Positions 18,272-30,474 of a DNA stretch of 64,000 nucleotides are shown piece after piece. Every line of letters begins with the position of its first letter. Positions within the stretch are counted from its first letter, which is position 1. The stretch comes from Bispira polyomma (taxonomy: Eukaryota): positions 4,216,001 to 4,280,000 of the forward strand of contig OZ287753.1 of assembly GCA_965649765.1 (NCBI GenBank). Direction: 5' to 3'. The notes beneath the pieces are model-generated. The model searched no databases. It saw nothing but the letters and a program-made list of their open reading frames with translations, and was not told where the DNA came from. Made by a program: the position numbers and the translations under genes.

Positions 18272-21045
18272 CTGATGCAAAAGTACAAGTACAGCTGTTA
18301 AGTTTTGTTTTTTATATAAGTAACATTAAGCAACTTTGGGACGGCGAATGCTTTATTACAGGTTCAAAAACAAATGCACGTGGCGTAGCAATTCTTTTGA
18401 AAAATAATTTTGAATACAATATATTGTTATGTAAGAAGGACACAAATGGAAACTGTATATGTCTAACATTGAAAATAAGTACTATGACAATAAATTTAGT
18501 ATCAATTTATGCACCAAACAAGGACAATCCCAATTTTTTCACAAATATACAAGATATTTTGCAGAGCAACGATGCCGATTACCACATAATATGTAGAGAT
18601 TTTAACTTGGTAATGAATCCCACAAAGGAGACCAATAACTATAAACATATCAATAACCCTAGATGAAGAATGTCTGTGTTAAATATGCTAAATACATTAG
18701 ATTTGGTTGATATTTATAGACAATTGCATCCTGAAACCTGTCGGTATACCCGGAGAAAAAAAAATCCTATGAAACAAGCTAGACTTGATTATTTTTTGGT
18801 GTCAAATATCATGGCCGATATTGTAGACAAATGTGACATTAAGCCTGGATATAGATCAGACCACTCAGTTATACAGTTAGAAATAGTAATAAATAAATTT
18901 GAAAGGGGTAAAGGAATTTGGAAACTGAACAACAGCCTCTTGAAAAATCCAAATTATCTAGATAATAAACAAGGTCATAAATATAGAAATCCCTAAATAT
19001 GCAGTACCTGTATATGACCCGTCTTATTTGGAAAATACAAACAATAACATTTCACTAACAGTTGATCAGGACATGTTCCTGGAACTATTACTTCTGAGAA
19101 TAAGGGGAGAGACTGTAAAATTTGGCACTAGTTTGAAAAGAAAAAATCATAATAAAGAACAAGAATTGTTGAAGGACATAGAGTACCTGGAAATACATTC
19201 AAACACTCAATTTCCCAATTTGGAACTATTAAATGACAAAAAGATGGAATTAGAGGCCCTAAGAGGGCTTAAACTTAAAGGTCAACAAGTACGATCCAGA
19301 TTACAATGGCTCAGTGAAGGAGAAAAGCCCTCAAAATATTTTTGTAATCTAGAAAACAAAGGTTATGTTGAAAAAACCTTTAAAAAAATCAAACTAGAAA
19401 ATGGAGGTGTAGTATATGATCAAAAAGAATTGTTACAGCAAGCTAGAATGTACTATGTAAATTTATTTAAAAATAGAGACATTCAATTAAACAGTGTGAT
19501 CCTTGAAGACATTCCTAAAGTTGCAGAAATTGAGAAAGTTGATGATGACAGTTTGGGAGATGTCATCAAAGTTCATGAGCTAAGTTATGTCTTAAAAAAT
19601 GAAACCAAATAAAACTCCGGGTATAGATGGTTTTACGTCAGAATTTTTAAAAGTATTTTGGGGAAAGCTGAAGTATTTTATTGTTGATGCAATTAACTCC
19701 TGTTTAAAAAAGGTACTTTGTCTACAACCCTTCGTCAGTGTATTATAGTCTGTTTACCCAAAGGGAATAAGGATAGAAGTTTAATCAAAAACTGGAGACC
19801 TATCTCACTGTTATCTGTGATATATAGGCTTGCTTCGGGTGCAATAGCCGAGAGACTGAGGAAAACATTAGATAATATTATACAAACACACAGACGGGAT
19901 TCCTATCAGGTAGATTTATAAGTGATAACACCAGATTAATATATGATCTGATACATATTCCAGAAACTAAGAATATACCTGGACTATTGATGCTGATCGA
20001 TTTTGAAAAAGCTTTTGACTCTATTTCTTGGAAATTTTTATATAATTTTCTTCTTTTTTTTGGATTCAGTAGAACCTTTATTAATTGGATAAAATTATTT
20101 GATATAAACATCAAAGCTTCTATTCTTCAGTGTGGTTTTTTATCTGAAGAAATTCCAATCGAAAGAGGTCGTAGACAAGGTGACCCCATTTCTTCATATT
20201 TAGTTCTTGTAGGAGCTGAGATACTGTCATTAGTGGTAAAATTAAATCCAGATTTTGTAGGTTTTAAATTTAAGGAAAAAGAAATAAAGCTAACACAGTT
20301 TGCAGATGACACTACCTTAATTCTAGATGGATCCAAGCACTCTCTGGAAACAGCCTTAAATATTTTGGAGATATTTGGTAATTTTTCAGGTCTAAAAATG
20401 AATATGGAAAAAACAAAAGTTATATATATAGGTCGGAAACACTTCTCAAAAGTTAATCGAATCTCCAAAGCTTGATTGGGGCCAATCAGAATTTTCACTA
20501 CTAGGAATTGAATTCTCTACTGATCTAAATGCCATGCTAAATAAGAACTATTTGGTTGCCCTTGAGAAAATCAAAACGGATATTAAAAAATGGAAAAATA
20601 GATTCTTGACCCCTTTGGGCAAAATAACATTGATAAAAACAAAATTGTTATCAAAACTCATTCACCTTCTCACAGCTTTACCAACACCAAAGTGTTTCCT
20701 AAAATAAAGAAATGATGTAATGTATAAATTCCTATGGAGTGAAAAACCTGATAAAGTTAAAAGAAATACAATATGTGCTAATTACTTCGAAGGGGGTCTA
20801 AAAATGATAAATGTCTACCACTTTGAAAAGTCATTAAAAATAACTTGGCTGCGAAAAATATTGTTCCAAAAAGAATCTTTATGGAGTACTATACTGACTG
20901 AAGTATATGGTAATTTTAAAAAATTAGCAACACTAGGTGGCGATTGGTGTACCACAGTATCTAAAATTGGAACCAATGCTTTCTGGGCCCAAGTATTTTG
21001 ACACTGGGCATATTTATGTCAAATAAAAGCTGTTTCTTCAAATAC

Positions 21046-21262
21046 GGGGGCTAGAGCGTTGGCAGCACTAGATGTCAGTCCTGGGAGTGACACTGAATGA
21101 ACCAACCCCTCATTTCCCCTCTGGGGTCTTTATAAGTTAATGACTAATGTTCTCTTTTCAGGGGCTTATGCATGCCAACACCGGCTGCTGGCTATAAAAA
21201 CCCCTGTTTTCTGGTGTAAAATTATCAAAATTCATTTGCCACACAAAGTGCTGTTCAAAATT
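21046..21262 (+). repeat. Split direct repeat A1 (217 bp, matches 26641-26857), contains TATAAAA at 21194
   Basis: Direct sequence match. Confidence 0.95.
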
Positions 21263-21492
21263 GTGTCATCCAATTTTGGGGCCCTACTTCTGCTACTTCT
21301 CCAGCACATTGGCAAATGTCAAAACAACTTAACAAGATTGCAAATGGATTTTAAATTATTTTAGTCTTTTAATTATCTCATATCATTTACTTGTAAATAT
21401 TTTCATATGTAAATTCACTTGTTGGAGGTTTGGTGGCAGAAAGAGGATCCCTATGTGTTATTGTGTTTATAAGCTGTGATAAGTTATTTAAA

Positions 21493-22800
21493 ATGGCCAC
21501 GGCCTACTGTCGGAAATGTGGAATACATCACACTCGACCTGTAGGAAAAAACTGTACACGGGATATTCCTGACTTAAGTTGTCCCTCCACTCCACCAGGT
21601 GTTAGAGGACGACCTCGCAAGCGAGCTGAATACACAGAAGCGGAGGTAGTTTCGGATACTTCCCCTCGAGTCTCTCAAGGTGACTCCAATAAGCTTGATT
21701 TTATTATCAGTAAGCTCCAGAGTCTAGAAGAACGTGTCAATGAAGTACAGAGGGACCATAGGACCAAGAATGTCACTTTTCCAGACACTGGGCGTCACCC
21801 CAGACGTCCGTCTCCCGAGAGAGCCGGTTATGTGCCTGACAGGAGCAGCAGGGCCTCACAAAGCTCGCCTACCCGGGCAGGATATCATCCTGAGAGTTCT
21901 GAGGGCAATGAAGGCCCGATGGCTGACAAGGATTGGGAACGCCTGATGGATGATATCGATTCTGATCGCCGAGGGGGCCTGCCTGTTTCGACCAGAAGAT
22001 CCCGAGCTGCTGCCGCTGAGAGAGGACGACGGGAAGATGACAGAGGTGCTGATGCGGGACTATATGATCATTTGGACTCTGAGGATTACTTATTACCTAG
22101 CCAGCAATATTTACGCACGAGCGACTATATACAACGTCAAGTTGACGCGCGCCTTCAACGTCACAAAAATAGGCTGGCCTCCTCACCTGAGGAATTAGGT
22201 AAGAAGTTAAAGTCAGGGTTGCACCGTACTGGTGAACATACTATTAAAAAACATATTAACTGGCTCCATGAGCACTGTTATGTGAATTCGAGTCGGAAAT
22301 ATCCTGCTTATGAAGAACTGACTCCACTCATGTGGTTTCAGGGATTCTTGCAGTGCATGATCGAAGAGCCGGAAAATATTATTAAAGACCACATGATGCA
22401 GTATGGGGTACAATTAATGAGAGATGCCATGGAGACTTCCTGGTATACAGCGAAAAGTGCCCACTGCGTATTACTTTTGGAAATGGAAAAAGGTAAAGTT
22501 GATTGGCAAGATTTAAAAGCCGTGCATGACATTAGGGCTCGTCTCACCCAAAGAACCATAAAAGAAAGTGGTCGTGATTCAGCCCCCACTGTTTCAAAAA
22601 ATAAAGGCAAAATTGTTCCTTGTACCGCTTACAACAAAGGTACTTGCACCCAAACAGGTGACCACACTTTTGCGGGTATGACTTTAAAGCACGGTTGTTC
22701 AAAATGTTTTATATCAACAAAGAAATTCAGTGCTCATAGGGAAATAAATTGTAAGGGTCCGGAAAACGGGAAAGGCCTCCAGGCAGCCCCAAAAGTGTAA
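21493..22800 (+). CDS. Gag-like ORF1 of YR retrotransposon (435 aa)
   Basis: First ATG at 21493 in AAAATGG context; N-terminal CRKCGIHH...C and C-terminal CTAYNKGTC..H..HGCSKC...H..C Zn-binding-like motifs. Confidence 0.85.
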   Translation: MATAYCRKCGIHHTRPVGKNCTRDIPDLSCPSTPPGVRGRPRKRAEYTEAEVVSDTSPRVSQGDSNKLDFIISKLQSLEERVNEVQRDHRTKNVTFPDTGRHPRRPSPERAGYVPDRSSRASQSSPTRAGYHPESSEGNEGPMADKDWERLMDDIDSDRRGGLPVSTRRSRAAAAERGRREDDRGADAGLYDHLDSEDYLLPSQQYLRTSDYIQRQVDARLQRHKNRLASSPEELGKKLKSGLHRTGEHTIKKHINWLHEHCYVNSSRKYPAYEELTPLMWFQGFLQCMIEEPENIIKDHMMQYGVQLMRDAMETSWYTAKSAHCVLLLEMEKGKVDWQDLKAVHDIRARLTQRTIKESGRDSAPTVSKNKGKIVPCTAYNKGTCTQTGDHTFAGMTLKHGCSKCFISTKKFSAHREINCKGPENGKGLQAAPKV

Positions 22801-24983
22801 TTATTAAGTCAAAAACTTTTTGGAACACAGCTTGGCTGGAGGCATATACTGAAACAAAAAATTTAAACAAGAATAGAAAACTCAATTCTGAAAAAGTCAG
22901 GTTTTTAGGGTTTAAGAAAGGTAAACAAGGGGATGTCAAAAAATTAGAACAAAAAATCCCTCCCACCACTACCCTTACAATTGATTCAAAATCAGTAAAC
23001 AAAGTATCAAAATGTCAAAATGCCTGTGTTCAAAAAGTTTGTCATACTGTTCAGCAAATCTCGTCTTCCCCTCCAAAAAAGGGGAATATTGCTGTAGTAC
23101 AAATTTCTCCAAAGTCGCATTTGGTTCAAAACTCTACTGCTGTTCATTCAGTCAAAACTCGGGGGAACCCCCCTTCAAAATCAATCAAAAATGACATGTC
23201 TGCAGTAATGCAAACAACCCATGACAAACAAACGTTTGTAAAAACAAATGACAATTTTGGGTTTATGTGTTTATATAAAACAGTTTATAGTATTCCAAAC
23301 CATACCAATGACCTTAAGTATACAACTTTGGAACAATGGGCCATTCTTTCGAATGCCAGGGTTAATCGATATGGCTGCCCCAATTACTTGGGAGCTCGCT
23401 TGCCAGTCCCCTCAGAGTTAAATATTCCTCAATGGAGGAACTTGTTGCAAGGTGACCCGGACATATTACTACCAGAGTATTTAGAATTTGGGTTTCCTTT
23501 GTGTATACAAAAACAGGGTTTTGTGTTTAATACTATAACAAAAAATCATGACTCAGCGTTACAGCATCCACAAAGTGTAGATGAATATTTCATAACAGAA
23601 CGTTTGCACAAAGCCATAGCTGGTCCTTTTTTAAATGACCCATTTGAGAAATTACATTTTTCTCCAGTTATGACTCGACCAAAAAGTGATAACACCCGAA
23701 GAATCATAGTTGATTTGTCTTGGCCTCACAATAATTCTTCTGTCAACAATACAGTATTGAACGGAGTATATGACGACCACGAGTTTCGTCTCACCCTCCC
23801 AAATATAGACATGTTGGTTGACAAAATCAATGAACTGGGTCCTAATTGCCTATTATATAGAATCGATTTATCTAGGGCGTTTAGGAACCTCCGTATTGAC
23901 CCAGGAGATTATAATTATGCTGCCCTTAATTGGAAAAATAACACCTACATTGACCTCTCTGTAATGATGGGGTACAAGCACGGCACGGCATTATGTGAAA
24001 AGACCACTGATTCATTACGTAGGCTCATGAATACTAAAGACTATCAAATTTACAACTACATCGACGATGTATTTGCGGCTGACACCCCAGAAAAATCAAA
24101 ACAATCATTTGACACGTTATATGACCTTATTCAAAAGTTAGGCCTTCCAATAAATCCTAATAAAGTGGAAAAGCCAGCTGAGTCAATTACTTGTATGGGC
24201 ATTATAGTAAATGCACGCACGGGAATATTGGAAATCCCCCAACAGAAAATGACTGATATATGTGATATGTGTAATCAGTGGCAAGGCCGTTCTCTTTGTA
24301 CTAGACGCCAACTTCAGTCCCTATTAGGAAAATTGCTGTACATACACCGATGTCTCAAACCAGCTCGGTTGTTTTTAAACAGAATGTTGGCATTACTAAG
24401 AGATTCCTACCCAAGTGTGAACATCACATTGAATGATGACTTTAAAAGGGACCTTAATTGGTTTCACGTCTTTTTACAACACTTCAATGGTATTGTAGAA
24501 ATGCACACAAATGACACCCCTAACAATGAAATGTTTGTGGACGCTTCCCTCACTGGTGTAGGGGCTGTGTATAATAACAATGTATATGCCTCCACTTATC
24601 CTGAAAACAAACCAATTCACTTTAGTATTGTTCACTATGAAATGTGGAATGTCTTAGTTGCATTAAGAAAGTGGGGACACCTTTGTAAAAACACGGTGCT
24701 GAACATTCATTGTGACAACTTAGCAGTTGTTCAAACTCTCAATTCGGGAAAAATTAAAGATAAATCACTGGCATTGATTGCTAGAGCTATATGGTTACAG
24801 ATAGCCATATACAATATAAAATTGTTATTATCGCATGTACCGGGTGGAAATAATATAATTGCTGACTGTTTGTCTCGGATGTTTTCCCCTTTGCCTATAA
24901 AACTAAAAGTTTCAGCCGAATTAAAAGGAAAAACTTGGTGGCCTGTCACTAAACAGGATTTTACACTGAATTACAGCATTTAA
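22755..24983 (+). CDS. RT/RNase H ORF of YR retrotransposon
   Basis: Frame open from 22755, further upstream than the track shows; RIIVDLS, IDLSRAFR, YIDD, LQSLLGKL, FVDAS, HCDN, IADCLSR. Confidence 0.93.
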   Translation, partial: GSGKRERPPGSPKSVIIKSKTFWNTAWLEAYTETKNLNKNRKLNSEKVRFLGFKKGKQGDVKKLEQKIPPTTTLTIDSKSVNKVSKCQNACVQKVCHTVQQISSSPPKKGNIAVVQISPKSHLVQNSTAVHSVKTRGNPPSKSIKNDMSAVMQTTHDKQTFVKTNDNFGFMCLYKTVYSIPNHTNDLKYTTLEQWAILSNARVNRYGCPNYLGARLPVPSELNIPQWRNLLQGDPDILLPEYLEFGFPLCIQKQGFVFNTITKNHDSALQHPQSVDEYFITERLHKAIAGPFLNDPFEKLHFSPVMTRPKSDNTRRIIVDLSWPHNNSSVNNTVLNGVYDDHEFRLTLPNIDMLVDKINELGPNCLLYRIDLSRAFRNLRIDPGDYNYAALNWKNNTYIDLSVMMGYKHGTALCEKTTDSLRRLMNTKDYQIYNYIDDVFAADTPEKSKQSFDTLYDLIQKLGLPINPNKVEKPAESITCMGIIVNARTGILEIPQQKMTDICDMCNQWQGRSLCTRRQLQSLLGKLLYIHRCLKPARLFLNRMLALLRDSYPSVNITLNDDFKRDLNWFHVFLQHFNGIVEMHTNDTPNNEMFVDASLTGVGAVYNNNVYASTYPENKPIHFSIVHYEMWNVLVALRKWGHLCKNTVLNIHCDNLAVVQTLNSGKIKDKSLALIARAIWLQIAIYNIKLLLSHVPGGNNIIADCLSRMFSPLPIKLKVSAELKGKTWWPVTKQDFTLNYSI

Positions 24984-25970
24984 TATAGTTTCACATTTCC
25001 AGGTTCTCCTTCAGAAAACCTCCTGTATTCAGCTGCTTTAACAAGACTTCCCCATGCCTGCACAGAGAAGACTTCTCAATCTTATTTACAATGTATTAGG
25101 TTATATTTAGCCCTGGCAATAGCATTACCAGTGCACGATTATACAACTACGAAATACATCTTAGTGTTTTTGGAATACTTAACTCAACAAGGACTTAAGC
25201 CTCCTTCTATTCAAAATTACATTTCAGCTATAAAGTTTTACTTTAAATTATGGAATATTTCCACTCTCCCATTTAACCACCCCCAGATTAACTTGTTCAT
25301 GAAATCAATAACCCTTTTAACCCCTTATAACCCTCGTTTAAAATCCATTATCTCCATTCCCATACTAAAAGACATTATCAATCAATGTGAAAAATATCAT
25401 AATGCACACGTGTATCAAGCTATTTTCCTTACAGCGTTTTTTGGTTTCTTTCGTATTTCCAACCTTGTACCTTCATCCATGTCCACATTTGACCCGGTCA
25501 GACACCTCACAGTAAGTGACCTTGTTTGGGGTCACCCAGGAGTTCATATCATCCTGCGATGGGCAAAAAACCTGCAACGCTATAATCAGTTCCATGTGGT
25601 GCAGTTACCTTTCATAAGAAATTCATCTTTATGTCCGGTTACTGCCCTTCTTGTAATGTTGCACTTAAATAAGCCCAAACCTTCTTCCCCTTTGTTCACT
25701 GAAAGCAAACATCCACTTGTACCTATCACTCAATACAAAGTGAGAAAGGTCTTACGTCAAATTATATCGACATTAGGCTTGAACCCACAAGCCTTCACAT
25801 TTCACGCTTTCCGTCGCTCTGGTGCGACCTTTGCCTTTGAAAATAATGTCAACCTCCAATCCATTATGGTTCATGGGGGTTGGCGTTCTCAAGCCGTCTG
25901 GGCTTATCTAAATTCAACACCAAATGCTGCAGCGACTGTAGCTACCTCACTTCAACATATTCTACAATAA
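24984..25970 (+). CDS. Tyrosine recombinase ORF
   Basis: Catalytic set R (FFRISNL), K (WAKN), HxxR (HAFRRSGA), HGGWRS, Y (VWAYL); frame opens right after the RT stop and has no N-terminal ATG. Confidence 0.93.
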   Translation, partial: YSFTFPGSPSENLLYSAALTRLPHACTEKTSQSYLQCIRLYLALAIALPVHDYTTTKYILVFLEYLTQQGLKPPSIQNYISAIKFYFKLWNISTLPFNHPQINLFMKSITLLTPYNPRLKSIISIPILKDIINQCEKYHNAHVYQAIFLTAFFGFFRISNLVPSSMSTFDPVRHLTVSDLVWGHPGVHIILRWAKNLQRYNQFHVVQLPFIRNSSLCPVTALLVMLHLNKPKPSSPLFTESKHPLVPITQYKVRKVLRQIISTLGLNPQAFTFHAFRRSGATFAFENNVNLQSIMVHGGWRSQAVWAYLNSTPNAAATVATSLQHILQ

Positions 25971-25994
25971 ATTACTACACCAAGTCTGGGCTCT

Positions 25995-26640
25995 TTGGGG
26001 CAATCTTCCTTTACATATTTACCTTTTATATTGTCATTTTCTTATGTATATATGTTTTATAATGTTATGTCTTATCATTAATGCTTATTACCAGTAATGT
26101 TACTACACCCTTGAGAAAGGATGACTTTAAGGTAACCATACATTAGATAAGCGTAAACTTTTATGTCGCATGCTTTGATGTTAATTGATTAATTCAGTGT
26201 AAATATCAACCAATTTATAAATGCATGCTCTATACTGATTGTGAATTGCTTACAGCATAAATCACTTAGTTTTAATTAGTAAATGATTCATAGTTGCAAT
26301 GATGCACGATAAGTGCATATATGTAAAACTTAACTAGTCAGAAAATAATATGTCATATTAGTGTAAATGTCTATTAAGCTGTTATAACATTGTGAATGTC
26401 TATTAAGCACAGATAAGTGCATTAGTTATTAGATTATCTGTGTAACATATTATTTTCTATCAAAAAGTTGTATATATACTAGTGTTAGATGCTAATTTTA
26501 GTGTAGATGTGTAGAATTAATAAAGCCCAAAGAGTGCCTGTGTATGACTTGGTGTTTCCTTCCTTGTTTCTCAGATTACAGCATAAATTATCACAAAACA
26601 AATATTACATATCCATACTTCAATGGATTGACATGGACTG
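25995..26640 (+). repeat. Split direct repeat B1 (~646 bp, matches 27429-28074)
   Basis: Direct match at offset 1434; AATAAA at ~26519. Confidence 0.95.
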
Positions 26641-26857
26641 GGGGGCTAGAGCGTTGGCAGCACTAGATGTCAGTCCTGGGAGTGACACTGAATGAACCAA
26701 CCCCTCATTTCCCCTCTGGGGTCTTTATAAGTTAATGACTAATGTTCTCTTTTCAGGGGCTTATGCATGCCAACACCGGCTGCTGGCTATAAAAACCCCT
26801 GTTTTCTGGTGTAAAATTATCAAAATTCATTTGCCACACAAAGTGCTGTTCAAAATT
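26641..26857 (+). repeat. Split direct repeat A2
   Basis: Matches A1; abuts B1 to form the circle-junction sequence. Confidence 0.95.
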
Positions 26858-27428
26858 CCCGCCCTCCCAGTCCCTGTATTTGTAATTTATGTTAATTATA
26901 TATTATGTCTCATTATGTTTGTGACAAATACCAAACGCATACTGTTTTTTGTATTTGCGAGGTAAACTCATACCAGTGCTAGGGTGAATACCAGCAAAAT
27001 GGCATGACATCACTACAAAGACACTGAGCAAACCAACTGACAGTGAGATGCAATGAAAGGAACTGTTGTCCTCACATAACTTCCTACTGATATGTAATAT
27101 TGTCATGCCATGATGCTTATAATGTTCAATTATATATATTCATGTTAAGCGGTGACTGTTAAGTAAAAAAGGGGGGTTGCCGCGAGTTCGATAGGATAAA
27201 CATTAATAGTCCTCACCAACACCTGCCCAAGCAGGTTCAAAACACTATACCAATCGTCTCAGGACCATGCTCCTCCAGCAATAACTCTAACAATTTCCTA
27301 TCATATATCATTTCTTTTAGTAAACTTAATTACTCTGTACTAAACAGGTACAACCATTTTAATTAAATTTTAGTTGTAGTTAACCCATTTCGGTGGGCCA
27401 ATCTTCCTTTACATATTTACCTTTTATA

Positions 27429-28074
27429 TTGGGGCAATCTTCCTTTACATATTTACCTTTTATATTGTCATTTTCTTATGTATATATGTTTTATAATGTT
27501 ATGTCTTATCATTAATGCTTATTACCAGTAATGTTACTACACCCTTGAGAAAGGATGACTTTAAGGTAACCATACATTAGATAAGCGTAAACTTTTATGT
27601 CGCATGCTTTGATGTTAATTGATTAATTCAGTGTAAATATCAACCAATTTATAAATGCATGCTCTATACTGATTGTGAATTGCTTACAGCATAAATCACT
27701 TAGTTTTAATTAGTAAATGATTCATAGTTGCAATGATGCACGATAAGTGCATATATGTAAAACTTAACTAGTCAGAAAATAATATGTCATATTAGTGTAA
27801 ATGTCTATTAAGCTGTTATAACATTGTGAATGTCTATTAAGCACAGATAAGTGCATTAGTTATTAGATTATCTGTGTAACATATTATTTTCTATCAAAAA
27901 GTTGTATATATACTAGTGTTAGATGCTAATTTTAGTGTAGATGTGTAGAATTAATAAAGCCCAAAGAGTGCCTGTGTATGACTTGGTGTTTCCTTCCTTG
28001 TTTCTCAGATTACAGCATAAATTATCACAAAACAAATATTACATATCCATACTTCAATGGATTGACATGGACTG
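27429..28074 (+). repeat. Split direct repeat B2
   Basis: Matches B1. Confidence 0.95.
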
Positions 28075-29136
28075 GGACATTTCTGAGTCGTGCTTATGGT
28101 GCAATAGCCAAATTTCAAAAAATATTTTTTTTATTTTTCACAAACTGGTATAAAAAGGGAATAAATTTTGTTGGTGATGTAATAAATTCAAAAGGAATGA
28201 TCATTAGTCATGATGAAATAAATAGACAGTTTAATACTACTGTGAATATTCTAGACTACTATAGAGTAAAGTTATCAGTAAAAACTTTTATAAAAAAATT
28301 TAAAAATGATAGTAACTTCTCGTACTGTAGACCTACCTTACCATTTCACCTAAAAGTACTATCCAAATCCAGTAAACGTTGTAAAGATTTTTATACAGAC
28401 TTTTGTGAAACTGATAAACAACTTCCTCAGTGTAGATCAAAATGGTCAGGTAGGTTAAATATTTCCAATGAAGATAACATATGGATGAATATTTTCAAAG
28501 CCTGCTTCAAGGCTATACAGGAAAACACGATTATTTGGTTTTAATATAAAATCATCTTTAACATATTGGATACTAAAGAATATTTACACAAAATAACGGT
28601 TTCTGATACTGATACTTGTAGTTTCTGTAAACAGCACCAAGAAAGTATTCAGCATTTGTTTATTCATTGCCCATATGTGAATGATCTATGGAAAAATGTT
28701 CAACAGTGGATTCGTAACAAACTGGCCATAGATATAGAACTCAACAAAAAACTACTCAACAAAAACTTTAGGATATTATAATCTTGATGAAACTTTTTGG
28801 CCTTTAAATTTTATACTTATAATAACAAGGTTTTATTTATATACATTGGTGTTCCAAAAAAAAACTTTTAGCTTAAACATATATTATCTTCAAAAGTTGA
28901 TAATGAGAAAGTTTCAGAGATTAATTTTATGAATGCAAAGTTTATGAAAAGATGGGAAGTGTGGCAAAAGTTGTTTGAAAATGTTTAAATGATTTCAAAT
29001 AAGTTTAAAAAAATAATGTCATATTATATATTTAAATGGTTAATGTGTGTGCCTTTGTCAAAGAACATAGTGTGAATGTGATAATTATGTAAAATTGTTA
29101 TCTTTTAGAGCCAGTAATTACCGTCTTATGTATGGT

Positions 29137-29198
29137 GTATTGTATTGTATGTTGTATTGTGTATTGTATTGTGTATTGTGTTGTGCATTGTGTATTGT
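29137..29198. repeat. (TATTG)n-type microsatellite at the 3' end of the LINE
   Basis: tgtattgtattgtatgttgtattg... Confidence 0.85.
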
Positions 29199-29302
29199 AC
29201 TTTTTGACAACTTTTTTAAAACTACACACGTTATATTCTAAGCACAATATAAACCTGAAATATATGCAGTCACAATATTAATTAGATATTGATGCAACTT
29301 AC

Positions 29303-29809
29303 CAGTGAGCCCATAATATCTCCTTGTTTGGCCAGGACCCGGGACTTCTTGGCCCTGTTCTTAAAGTGCCGCAGCGACTGGTCATAGAACAAAGGCTGTG
29401 CTGCAAAGAACTCCACCAATTGCTGTTCTTGCTCTTCTGACATTTGGTTGGTGACCTTTGGCTTCTTGCTGGCCCACTCATATTTGTTGTCCTCCTCCTT
29501 ATCATCCCCTGGAGGGACGTGGGGAGGCCCAAGGTCCACACTCCCTGAGGCTAATGTCTCCTTCACCAGAGTGGTTTCAATATCTGTAGTGACAGTGGTG
29601 GCTCGTCTCTCAGATGTGACTGTCCTTGGAGCACCTTCTGGTTCAGTGGTGCCACTAGCCTCAGTTGTGATAATGGCTTATGGAATCTTTATCACGGCCC
29701 CAGCCAACTCTTCAGTTTCTTCCGGAAACATGGGCTCTTGAGACAGAAGAAATTCCTCAGTTCCATTCTTTTTTCCCTTCCCCTTTTGAGTAATCACTTT
29801 AGGAGGCAT
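29303..29809 (-). pseudogene. Harbinger MADF/Myb-SANT ORF, exon 1
   Basis: ATG at 29809 (MPPKVITQKGKGKK); MSEEQEQQLVEFFAAQPLFYDQSLRHFKNR; GTAAGT donor at 29302; frameshifted. Confidence 0.72.
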
Positions 29810-30474
29810 TATTACATCCAAATAAGAATTTTTAAACAGTTCAAGAACTGAAACTCTATATCATCCAGTAGTAGAAAACGTCTGCGTAGACCTAAAGACT
29901 TCATGAAACTGATCGCCGAATAGCAAAGCCCCCCTATTTATACCCTGTGAGACCTATTGCCGACCAGTCTTTTTCTGCTCTTTAGTTGATCTGCGAGAGG
30001 TTTCTAATTGGTCGCCGACCAGTGGGAGGAGTTTTTTAAATAATAGACGAGCGTTCTCCGATAATTTGATCGGTCGGCGATAGGTGAGTTTCTTTTTTTT
30101 AAATAGTAAAAAAAGTTTATTCCCTCTATTAAAATCATTTTTCAGATACCCTGTGCAGAGGAGAGGGATTGCAACCCTCTAACAGGGACTTTACAATAAA
30201 CTGCACCTCACAGGGTGGCTTAAGGTTACAAAAAGATTAAATATAACAGTATTACACAGTAACAAAAATTTTATTTTAATAAAATTTTATTTTATTTAAT
30301 TTTATTACACAGTAACAAAAATTTATTTTATAGTAGGAAGGGAAAATAAATATTTAGTATGTACATAAACCATTTCTTAATTAACTATGTACAAGACAAG
30401 AAAGAAAAACATTCACAAGCAAAAAAAATAAATTAAATGAAAGAAAAGAAAATTACATGATAGCTTTGTTAATT

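Follow-up and report, generated by a model that had tools for sequence, protein, structure and literature searches.

In a 64,000-nt stretch of the genome of Bispira polyomma (GenBank assembly GCA_965649765.1, contig OZ287753.1, positions 4,216,001 to 4,280,000 of the forward strand; hereafter the window, in which positions are counted from the first letter) we found a young Ngaro-type tyrosine recombinase (YR) retrotransposon whose gag-like open reading frame (ORF) overlaps the ORF for reverse transcriptase (RT) and ribonuclease H (RNase H), here called pol. The organization of this overlap and its conservation make it very probable that the element produces a Gag-Pol fusion protein of 1163 aa by programmed -1 ribosomal frameshifting at the heptamer G_GAA_AAC, aided by a predicted stem 7 nt downstream. 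Related clades in the same genome appear to fill the same recoding slot with UGA readthrough or with a +1 shift at GUU-stop. Both the mechanism, which is textbook knowledge, and the kind of element are known, but neither its use in Ngaro elements nor the three-way swap among clades was found in the accessible literature.

The gag-like ORF (21493..22800, plus strand, as are all features of the element described here) encodes 435 aa from its ATG, carries a Cys/His finger at its C-terminus and ends with a TAA at 22798-22800. The pol ORF (22755..24983, 742 aa) lies in the -1 frame and is open from 22755, which results in an overlap of 46 nt including the gag stop. It comprises an FWNTAWLE peptide, a variable linker, RT and RNase H, and its first ATG is located at 23196, 441 nt into the frame. 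Within the overlap the predicted shift site GGAAAAC (22761..22767) is phased to the gag frame as G_GAA_AAC and is followed by a 7-nt spacer (22768..22774) and a predicted stimulatory stem-loop (22775..22843) with an 8-bp outer stem, extra pairs and a weaker A/U inner helix. The outer stem is formed by GCCTCCAG (22775-22782), which is perfectly complementary to CTGGAGGC (22836-22843). Shifting the frame at this site in silico yielded a stop-free product of 425+738 = 1163 aa. An earlier note on this DNA, made from the letters alone, had described the 46-nt overlap, a first pol ATG about 440 nt into the frame, the phased heptamer with its spacer, the perfect outer pairing and a fusion of about 1163 aa, and all of these could be confirmed. 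It had also described a second, enclosed helix, which is present at 22789-22796/22815-22823 but requires a bulge and is weaker than stated, its two loop-side pairs being broken in 9 and in 10 of the 26 copies. That description lacked another phased heptamer of canonical type, C_CCA_AAA at 22788-22794, which also lies within the overlap.

Folding recovered the long stem with -25.3 kcal/mol (z score -2.2, 6 of 200 shuffles equally good), and a refold of 22755-22860 gave a z score of -2.0. Among 5000 dinucleotide shuffles of 22752-22900, a phased heptamer with a perfect 8-bp stem at 5-9 nt occurred in 17 and one with a GC-rich 8-bp stem in 2. Across the whole window there were 712 heptamers on the plus and 710 on the minus strand, and the site at 22761 was the sole one combined with a GC-rich stem. 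GGA as the XXX of a slippery heptamer is described as tolerated in the accessible part of PMC3542737, in agreement with the earlier note, and GGAAAAC is listed as a candidate -1 site in fungal double-stranded RNA viruses in that of PMC4881467.

The junction is well conserved within the clade of the window element (clade A). The heptamer was exact in all 25 close loci. Clade A comprised 29 entries, of which 26 could be aligned (L046, L050 and L075, which are without a junction, were excluded), and these fall into six subfamilies, each represented by one row for codon comparison. Of the aligned rows, 19 had the exact heptamer, three G_GAA_AAT, two A_GAA_AAC and one A_GAA_AAT, and in one it was deleted. 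Every base change is a CpG transition (C>T or G>A), which would be expected in decaying copies. The gag codons adjoining the heptamer vary synonymously among the subfamily rows; the codon 5' of GAA AAC is CCG, GCG, TCG or CAG, encoding Pro, Ala, Ser or Gln, and ends in G in five of six rows. Spacer length was constant in 25 of 26 rows with base changes tolerated, and in the remaining row site and spacer are hit by a 9-nt deletion.

Each of the eight outer-stem pairs was retained in 25-26 of the 26 rows, and all six subfamily rows were predicted to fold the same outer stem (z scores -2.2 to -6.0). In its 3' arm, which codes for pol only, the codons GCT, CTG and GAG are invariant across the six rows, and the next wobble base, outside the stem, is variable. 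Invariance rates of the same codons in the RT core were 2/45, 6/42 and 21/68, with a product of about 0.002 assuming independence. These frozen synonymous sites show constraint on the RNA or DNA letters, from which we infer pairing. With heptamer, phase, spacing and outer stem kept across six subfamilies, the -1 frameshifting interpretation put forward in the earlier note is supported. A small hairpin covering the heptamer, seen in the fold of the window copy, was dropped since it needs bases that vary between subfamilies.

According to the proposed mechanism, the stem would make ribosomes pause while GAA occupies the P site and AAC the A site. In a minority of them, tRNA-Glu and tRNA-Asn would slip in tandem from GAA AAC to GGA AAA, and these ribosomes would continue into pol to give the 1163-aa fusion; most would terminate at 22800 and release the 435-aa Gag. 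A spliced RNA that skips the slip site would provide a recombinase with an N-terminal Gag part, Gag(N)-YR. The arrangement resembles that of retroviruses and long terminal repeat (LTR) retrotransposons in its phased X_XXY_YYZ heptamer just after the gag finger, the structure 5-9 nt downstream and a pol without start codon. It differs in that the element is without a protease or DDE integrase, so that the fusion would not be cleaved by a protease of its own, in the use of the tolerated GGA, and in that the stimulator is a predicted long stem-loop with a wide loop. Among animal retroelements pol is in the -1 frame in 28 of 51 and in the +1 frame in only 2 of 51 (cited in the accessible part of PMC5009743).

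Searches of the genome with RT (five queries) and gag (one query) provided 155 stretches in which the junctions were studied. A quick tree of 109 RT cores (7 short cores were excluded) had support for four clades and placed A next to B as its sister (support 99). In clade B (L051-L063, L065-L068, L077-L085), a pattern search placed an in-frame TGA-C after the gag finger in 23 of 26 loci, TGA-C being present in all 23 called loci. Most families read TGA CAG CCA, and one subgroup TGA CTC CAA. Known readthrough contexts are UAG_CAR_YYA, UGA_CUA/CGG and leaky UGA-C, and CARYYA is stated to act on UGA too (accessible text of PMC3542737). With gag, TGA and pol in one frame, clade B resembles these systems; its TGA CAG CCA context fits CAR_YYA, whereas TGA CTC CAA fits neither motif exactly.

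Clade C differs again, as gag ends with GTT-stop in 36 of 41 loci and pol follows in the +1 frame. The stops of these 36 loci were TAG (18), TGA (15) and TAA (3), mostly followed by T, and the GTT-stop is preceded by a conserved Gln-Arg-like codon pair. For 33 of the 36 loci the +1 frame stays in register with RT across linkers of 816-1356 nt. Including families outside the clade, +1 loci with GTT-stop were L064, L086-L125, L191, L192, L197 and L201. A +1 motif GUU_stop_C is reported for closteroviruses and called 'something of a mystery' (accessible text of PMC3542737). Clade C and the further families share with it the GTT-stop gag end, any of the three stops and a pol in +1; clade C differs in being an animal retrotransposon, in the T that mostly follows the stop and in the Gln-Arg-like codon pair.

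Clade D (L126-L145) would use -1 frameshifting on another heptamer, A_AAA_AAC, which was exact in 17 of 20 loci and within one mismatch in 19, together with a hairpin. The closing pair of this perfect hairpin is C-G in 15 rows vs U-A in 4, a compensatory change. Among 40 further distant loci (L164-L203), 26 had a phased A_AAA_AA(C/T) just after the finger, 4 a GTT-stop and 2 a stop first, with 8 uncalled; loci with A_AAA_AAC carry several different downstream stems. In 24 rows with a -1 junction, a predicted stem started 5-9 nt downstream in 18, and z scores were -2 or lower versus simple shuffles in 19. In all five clade-A rows among them the window just after the heptamer folded better than every later window of the linker.

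Metagenome contigs contributed 12 distant loci, none of them close to clade A, with readable junctions in 4 of the 12. One (L146) has A_AAA_AAC with a -1 frame and without a good stem, and three (L149-L151), from a distant clade, have in-frame TGA-CT junctions. Among viral contigs, 35 pattern matches included no relative. Single long frames spanning gag and pol in L095, L135, L165 and L179 were set aside as probable copy mutations, each being a single copy with siblings that have a normal junction. Families L187-L194 have pol frames of 1170-1240 aa, the distance from gag to RT being some 600 residues longer. In those with an identified finger (L187-L189, L191, L192), long pol frames that recur in several copies were pol ORFs with their own upstream junction.

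For 37 selected rows the tree requires three changes of recoding mode. Approximately unbiased tests rejected trees in which the readthrough rows, L149-L151 together with clade B, form one clade (p 0.0013), as well as those that unite the -1 rows (p 3e-7). The tree is quick and unrooted, and gives no order of events; its long branches meet at L146 and L149-L151, the mode groups were named after earlier trees had been seen, and the +1 rows as one group have a support of only 67. That -1 frameshifting came first is no more than a guess, made from how widely it occurs. Taken together, it is probable that Ngaro elements follow a retroviral expression logic without being retroviruses, with a recoded Gag-Pol from unspliced RNA and a recombinase from spliced RNA, and that they combine this with a modular slot filled within one genome by -1 shifts on two heptamers, by UGA readthrough of the CAR-YYA type and by a +1 shift at GUU-stop like that of closteroviruses, the mode having changed at least three times, including once between sister clades. 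The earlier note contained neither the readthrough-type nor the +1-type replacement signals of related clades.

Accessible sections of papers on Ngaro elements mention overlapping or frameshifted ORFs and give no translational mechanism, and Ngaro elements are described as usually without ORF overlaps (accessible part of PMC3266345). We found no report of recoding in YR retrotransposons in the accessible main texts, and no full-text paper combining DIRS, ribosomal frameshifting and tyrosine recombinase. ORF annotations are given in the supplements of PMC9210276 and PMC3266345. The first 300,000 of the 449,034 characters of PMC5009743 contain no mention of DIRS or Ngaro. An explanation of the route by which YR retrotransposons make RT was likewise not found in the accessible literature. 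The junction described here would supply an exact, testable slip site and fusion product. Related families that would make the same fusion in one host by -1 shift, +1 shift or readthrough would also represent a natural experiment in which efficiencies and Gag:Pol ratios are comparable against a constant host machinery, and the GUU-stop +1 motif would gain many divergent animal examples. For annotation, pol would begin at the gag finger and not at the first ATG.

Several observations weigh against -1 frameshifting at G_GAA_AAC or against the wider pattern. A phased heptamer alone is frequent, being found in 1880 of the 5000 shuffles, and the fold of the window copy is modest; the folding check named in the earlier note recovered the stem at a z score of about -2. 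The conservation and covariation check named there showed heptamer and stem conserved in relatives and no covariation in the stem. There was no compensatory change among 13 outer-helix pairs in the 26 clade-A rows, where this helix is nearly invariant. The compensatory signal of the inner helix amounted to one cell, and the covariation score was no better than that of shuffles (235 of 500 as high). The frozen bases point to constraint at the level of the RNA and not to pairing as such. The pol frame was open throughout the linker in only 3 of 23 called clade-A rows, most copies of the clade outside the young family having broken pol frames. Of all 24 rows with a -1 junction, only 11 had a better fold just after the heptamer than anywhere later in the linker, and the post-heptamer folds of L146, L186, L189, L180 and L130 were weak. 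Loci were chosen mostly for long pol frames, which favours tidy junctions, and represent a sample and not a census.

One alternative to frameshifting is that RT is made from a spliced RNA, with the gag donor at 22198 joined to an AG close to where pol starts and with an incidental overlap of the frames. The phase-1 gag donor is conserved and could in principle serve pol. The dinucleotide AG at 22781-22782 fits phase 1 of pol and is the same in all 26 clade-A rows, and clade B likewise has a phase-1 AG behind its TGA. With an acceptor matrix built from 50 YR contexts, whose own scores of 2.3 to 12.6 (median 8.8) are inflated as those of a training set, we scored the region near pol in 11 rows of clades A and B. 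The junction AGs obtained -9 to -17 in seven clade-A rows and -9 to -22 in four clade-B rows, and the tract upstream is purine-rich. An AG at about 22908 scored 1.3 in the window copy, but it is unmatched in the other six clade-A rows and sits behind the conserved FWN peptide. A spliced pol would furthermore leave the heptamer unexplained, and we regard this route as very unlikely.

An equally improbable route is initiation of RT at its own AUG (23196) via reinitiation, leaky scanning or internal entry, with the stem serving that process. An in-frame ATG does lie 48 codons ahead of the RT core used, and a conserved structure at the gag stop could aid reinitiation. The first Met is, however, not conserved, being found 145, 12 and 51 codons past the site in the three open clade-A rows and at positions 32-202 in clade C, 12-147 in clade D and 18-196 in clade B. 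Over the long linkers of clade C noted above, the reading frame between GTT-stop and RT is preserved in 33 of 36 loci. Moreover, the FWN peptide lies upstream of the ATG at 23196 in the window copy. Clade A encodes it in the -1 frame, and in 21 of 26 clade-B loci it follows the TGA without a change of frame; its codons differ synonymously, and because it is kept in this way in both clades the pre-AUG stretch is likely translated. Both the spliced and the own-AUG route leave several distinct recoding motifs at the same spot unexplained, and neither is supported by the sequences compared. A -1 shift on C_CCA_AAA at 22788-22794, or polymerase slippage, with the stem acting in packaging or priming, would suit a canonical phased heptamer within the overlap and a stem without covariation but is hardly credible, as C_CCA_AAA occurs in only two of six subfamily rows and has no 8-bp stem at 5-9 nt behind it in the window copy, and the A run at the first site is four long, which is short for polymerase slippage.

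While frameshifting at G_GAA_AAC is the preferred explanation for RT, splicing likely serves the YR ORF, because this ORF is without an early Met, has a conserved phase-1 acceptor YAG and is preceded by the conserved gag donor. The YR ORF (24984..25970; Pfam Phage_integrase, E-value 9.5e-7) has its first Met at codon 106. Removal of the predicted phase-1 intron of 2804 nt (22199..25002) would take out the gag finger, slip site and pol, leaving 235 gag codons fused to YR (about 557 aa). The donor G|GT is conserved in four clades, a phase-1 donor 5' of the gag KS(G/Q) motif being present in 17 of 19 loci in clade A, 22 of 26 in B, 36 of 41 in C and 17 of 20 in D. A phase-1 YAG behind a T-rich tract was found at the YR ORF in 91 of 107 loci, and in six clade-B misses the site sits just outside the search window. 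Contigs of unrecorded kind from three runs were compared with 21000-26900; among the 14 joints listed, no match to the predicted intron or to a pol acceptor was seen, which is uninformative on splicing.

The whole element spans 21046..28074 (about 7.03 kb) and is bounded by split direct repeats. Repeat A1 (21046..21262, 217 nt) is identical to A2 (26641..26857), and B1 (25995..26640, 646 nt) has 100% identity with B2 (27429..28074). The order of ORFs, gag-like, RT/RNase H and YR, all on one strand, and the repeat arrangement A1-ORFs-B1-A2-B2 are those of Ngaro elements, which are described as having this ORF order, split repeats and no methyltransferase (accessible parts of PMC4157794, PMC3783388 and PMC9210276). 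No methyltransferase domain was matched in Pfam at an E-value of 0.1, and pol ends about 30 residues past its RNase H match; lack of this domain sets Ngaro apart from DIRS1-like and most PAT elements. Terminal inverted repeats of at least 18 nt were absent from 19000-30000, unlike in DIRS1-like elements, which have such repeats and an internal complementary region. The window element differs from described Ngaro elements by a 571-nt spacer between A2 and B2, which is present in other copies too. From these structural features as described in papers, the element is assigned to Ngaro (order DIRS).

The pol ORF matched Pfam RVT_1 (E-value 2.8e-12) and RT_RNaseH (E-value 0.0016, under the Pfam cut-off). 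A Pfam search with the gag-like ORF gave no match; it is conserved across the Ngaro clades of the genome, and the name gag is based on ORF position, as is done in the literature. In a protein search the best relatives were 44-48% identical, and none of the 120 listed of 170 found was a named reference element. Within the assembly of 1.04 Gb in 75 contigs the family appears young, as 17 of the 42 junction matches listed had 99-100% identity across the full 601 nt. Four of six fetched copies aligned with the window element across 7030-7035 nt with 99.3-99.8% identity, and the remaining two stop after B1 (5595-5600 nt). These two look as if B1 and B2 had recombined, and copy L158 runs on into a further A and B repeat.

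Additional features were observed in and around the element. The gag N-terminus (21493-21625) has a Cys/His cluster followed by an RGRPRK stretch, which we take to resemble an AT-hook, Pfam giving no match. Repeat A contains a branch-point-like motif, a pyrimidine tract and an AG (21141-21161 and the copy in A2), as well as a TATA-like box at 21193-21199. In the spacer between A2 and B2 (26858-27428), positions 27394-27431 hold an incomplete copy of B (38 nt), and 26993-27017 forms an imperfect inverted repeat with 27093-27117. The element is nested in broken sequence resembling a non-LTR retrotransposon (about 18960-21045 and from 28075), with an RT match at 19876-20472.

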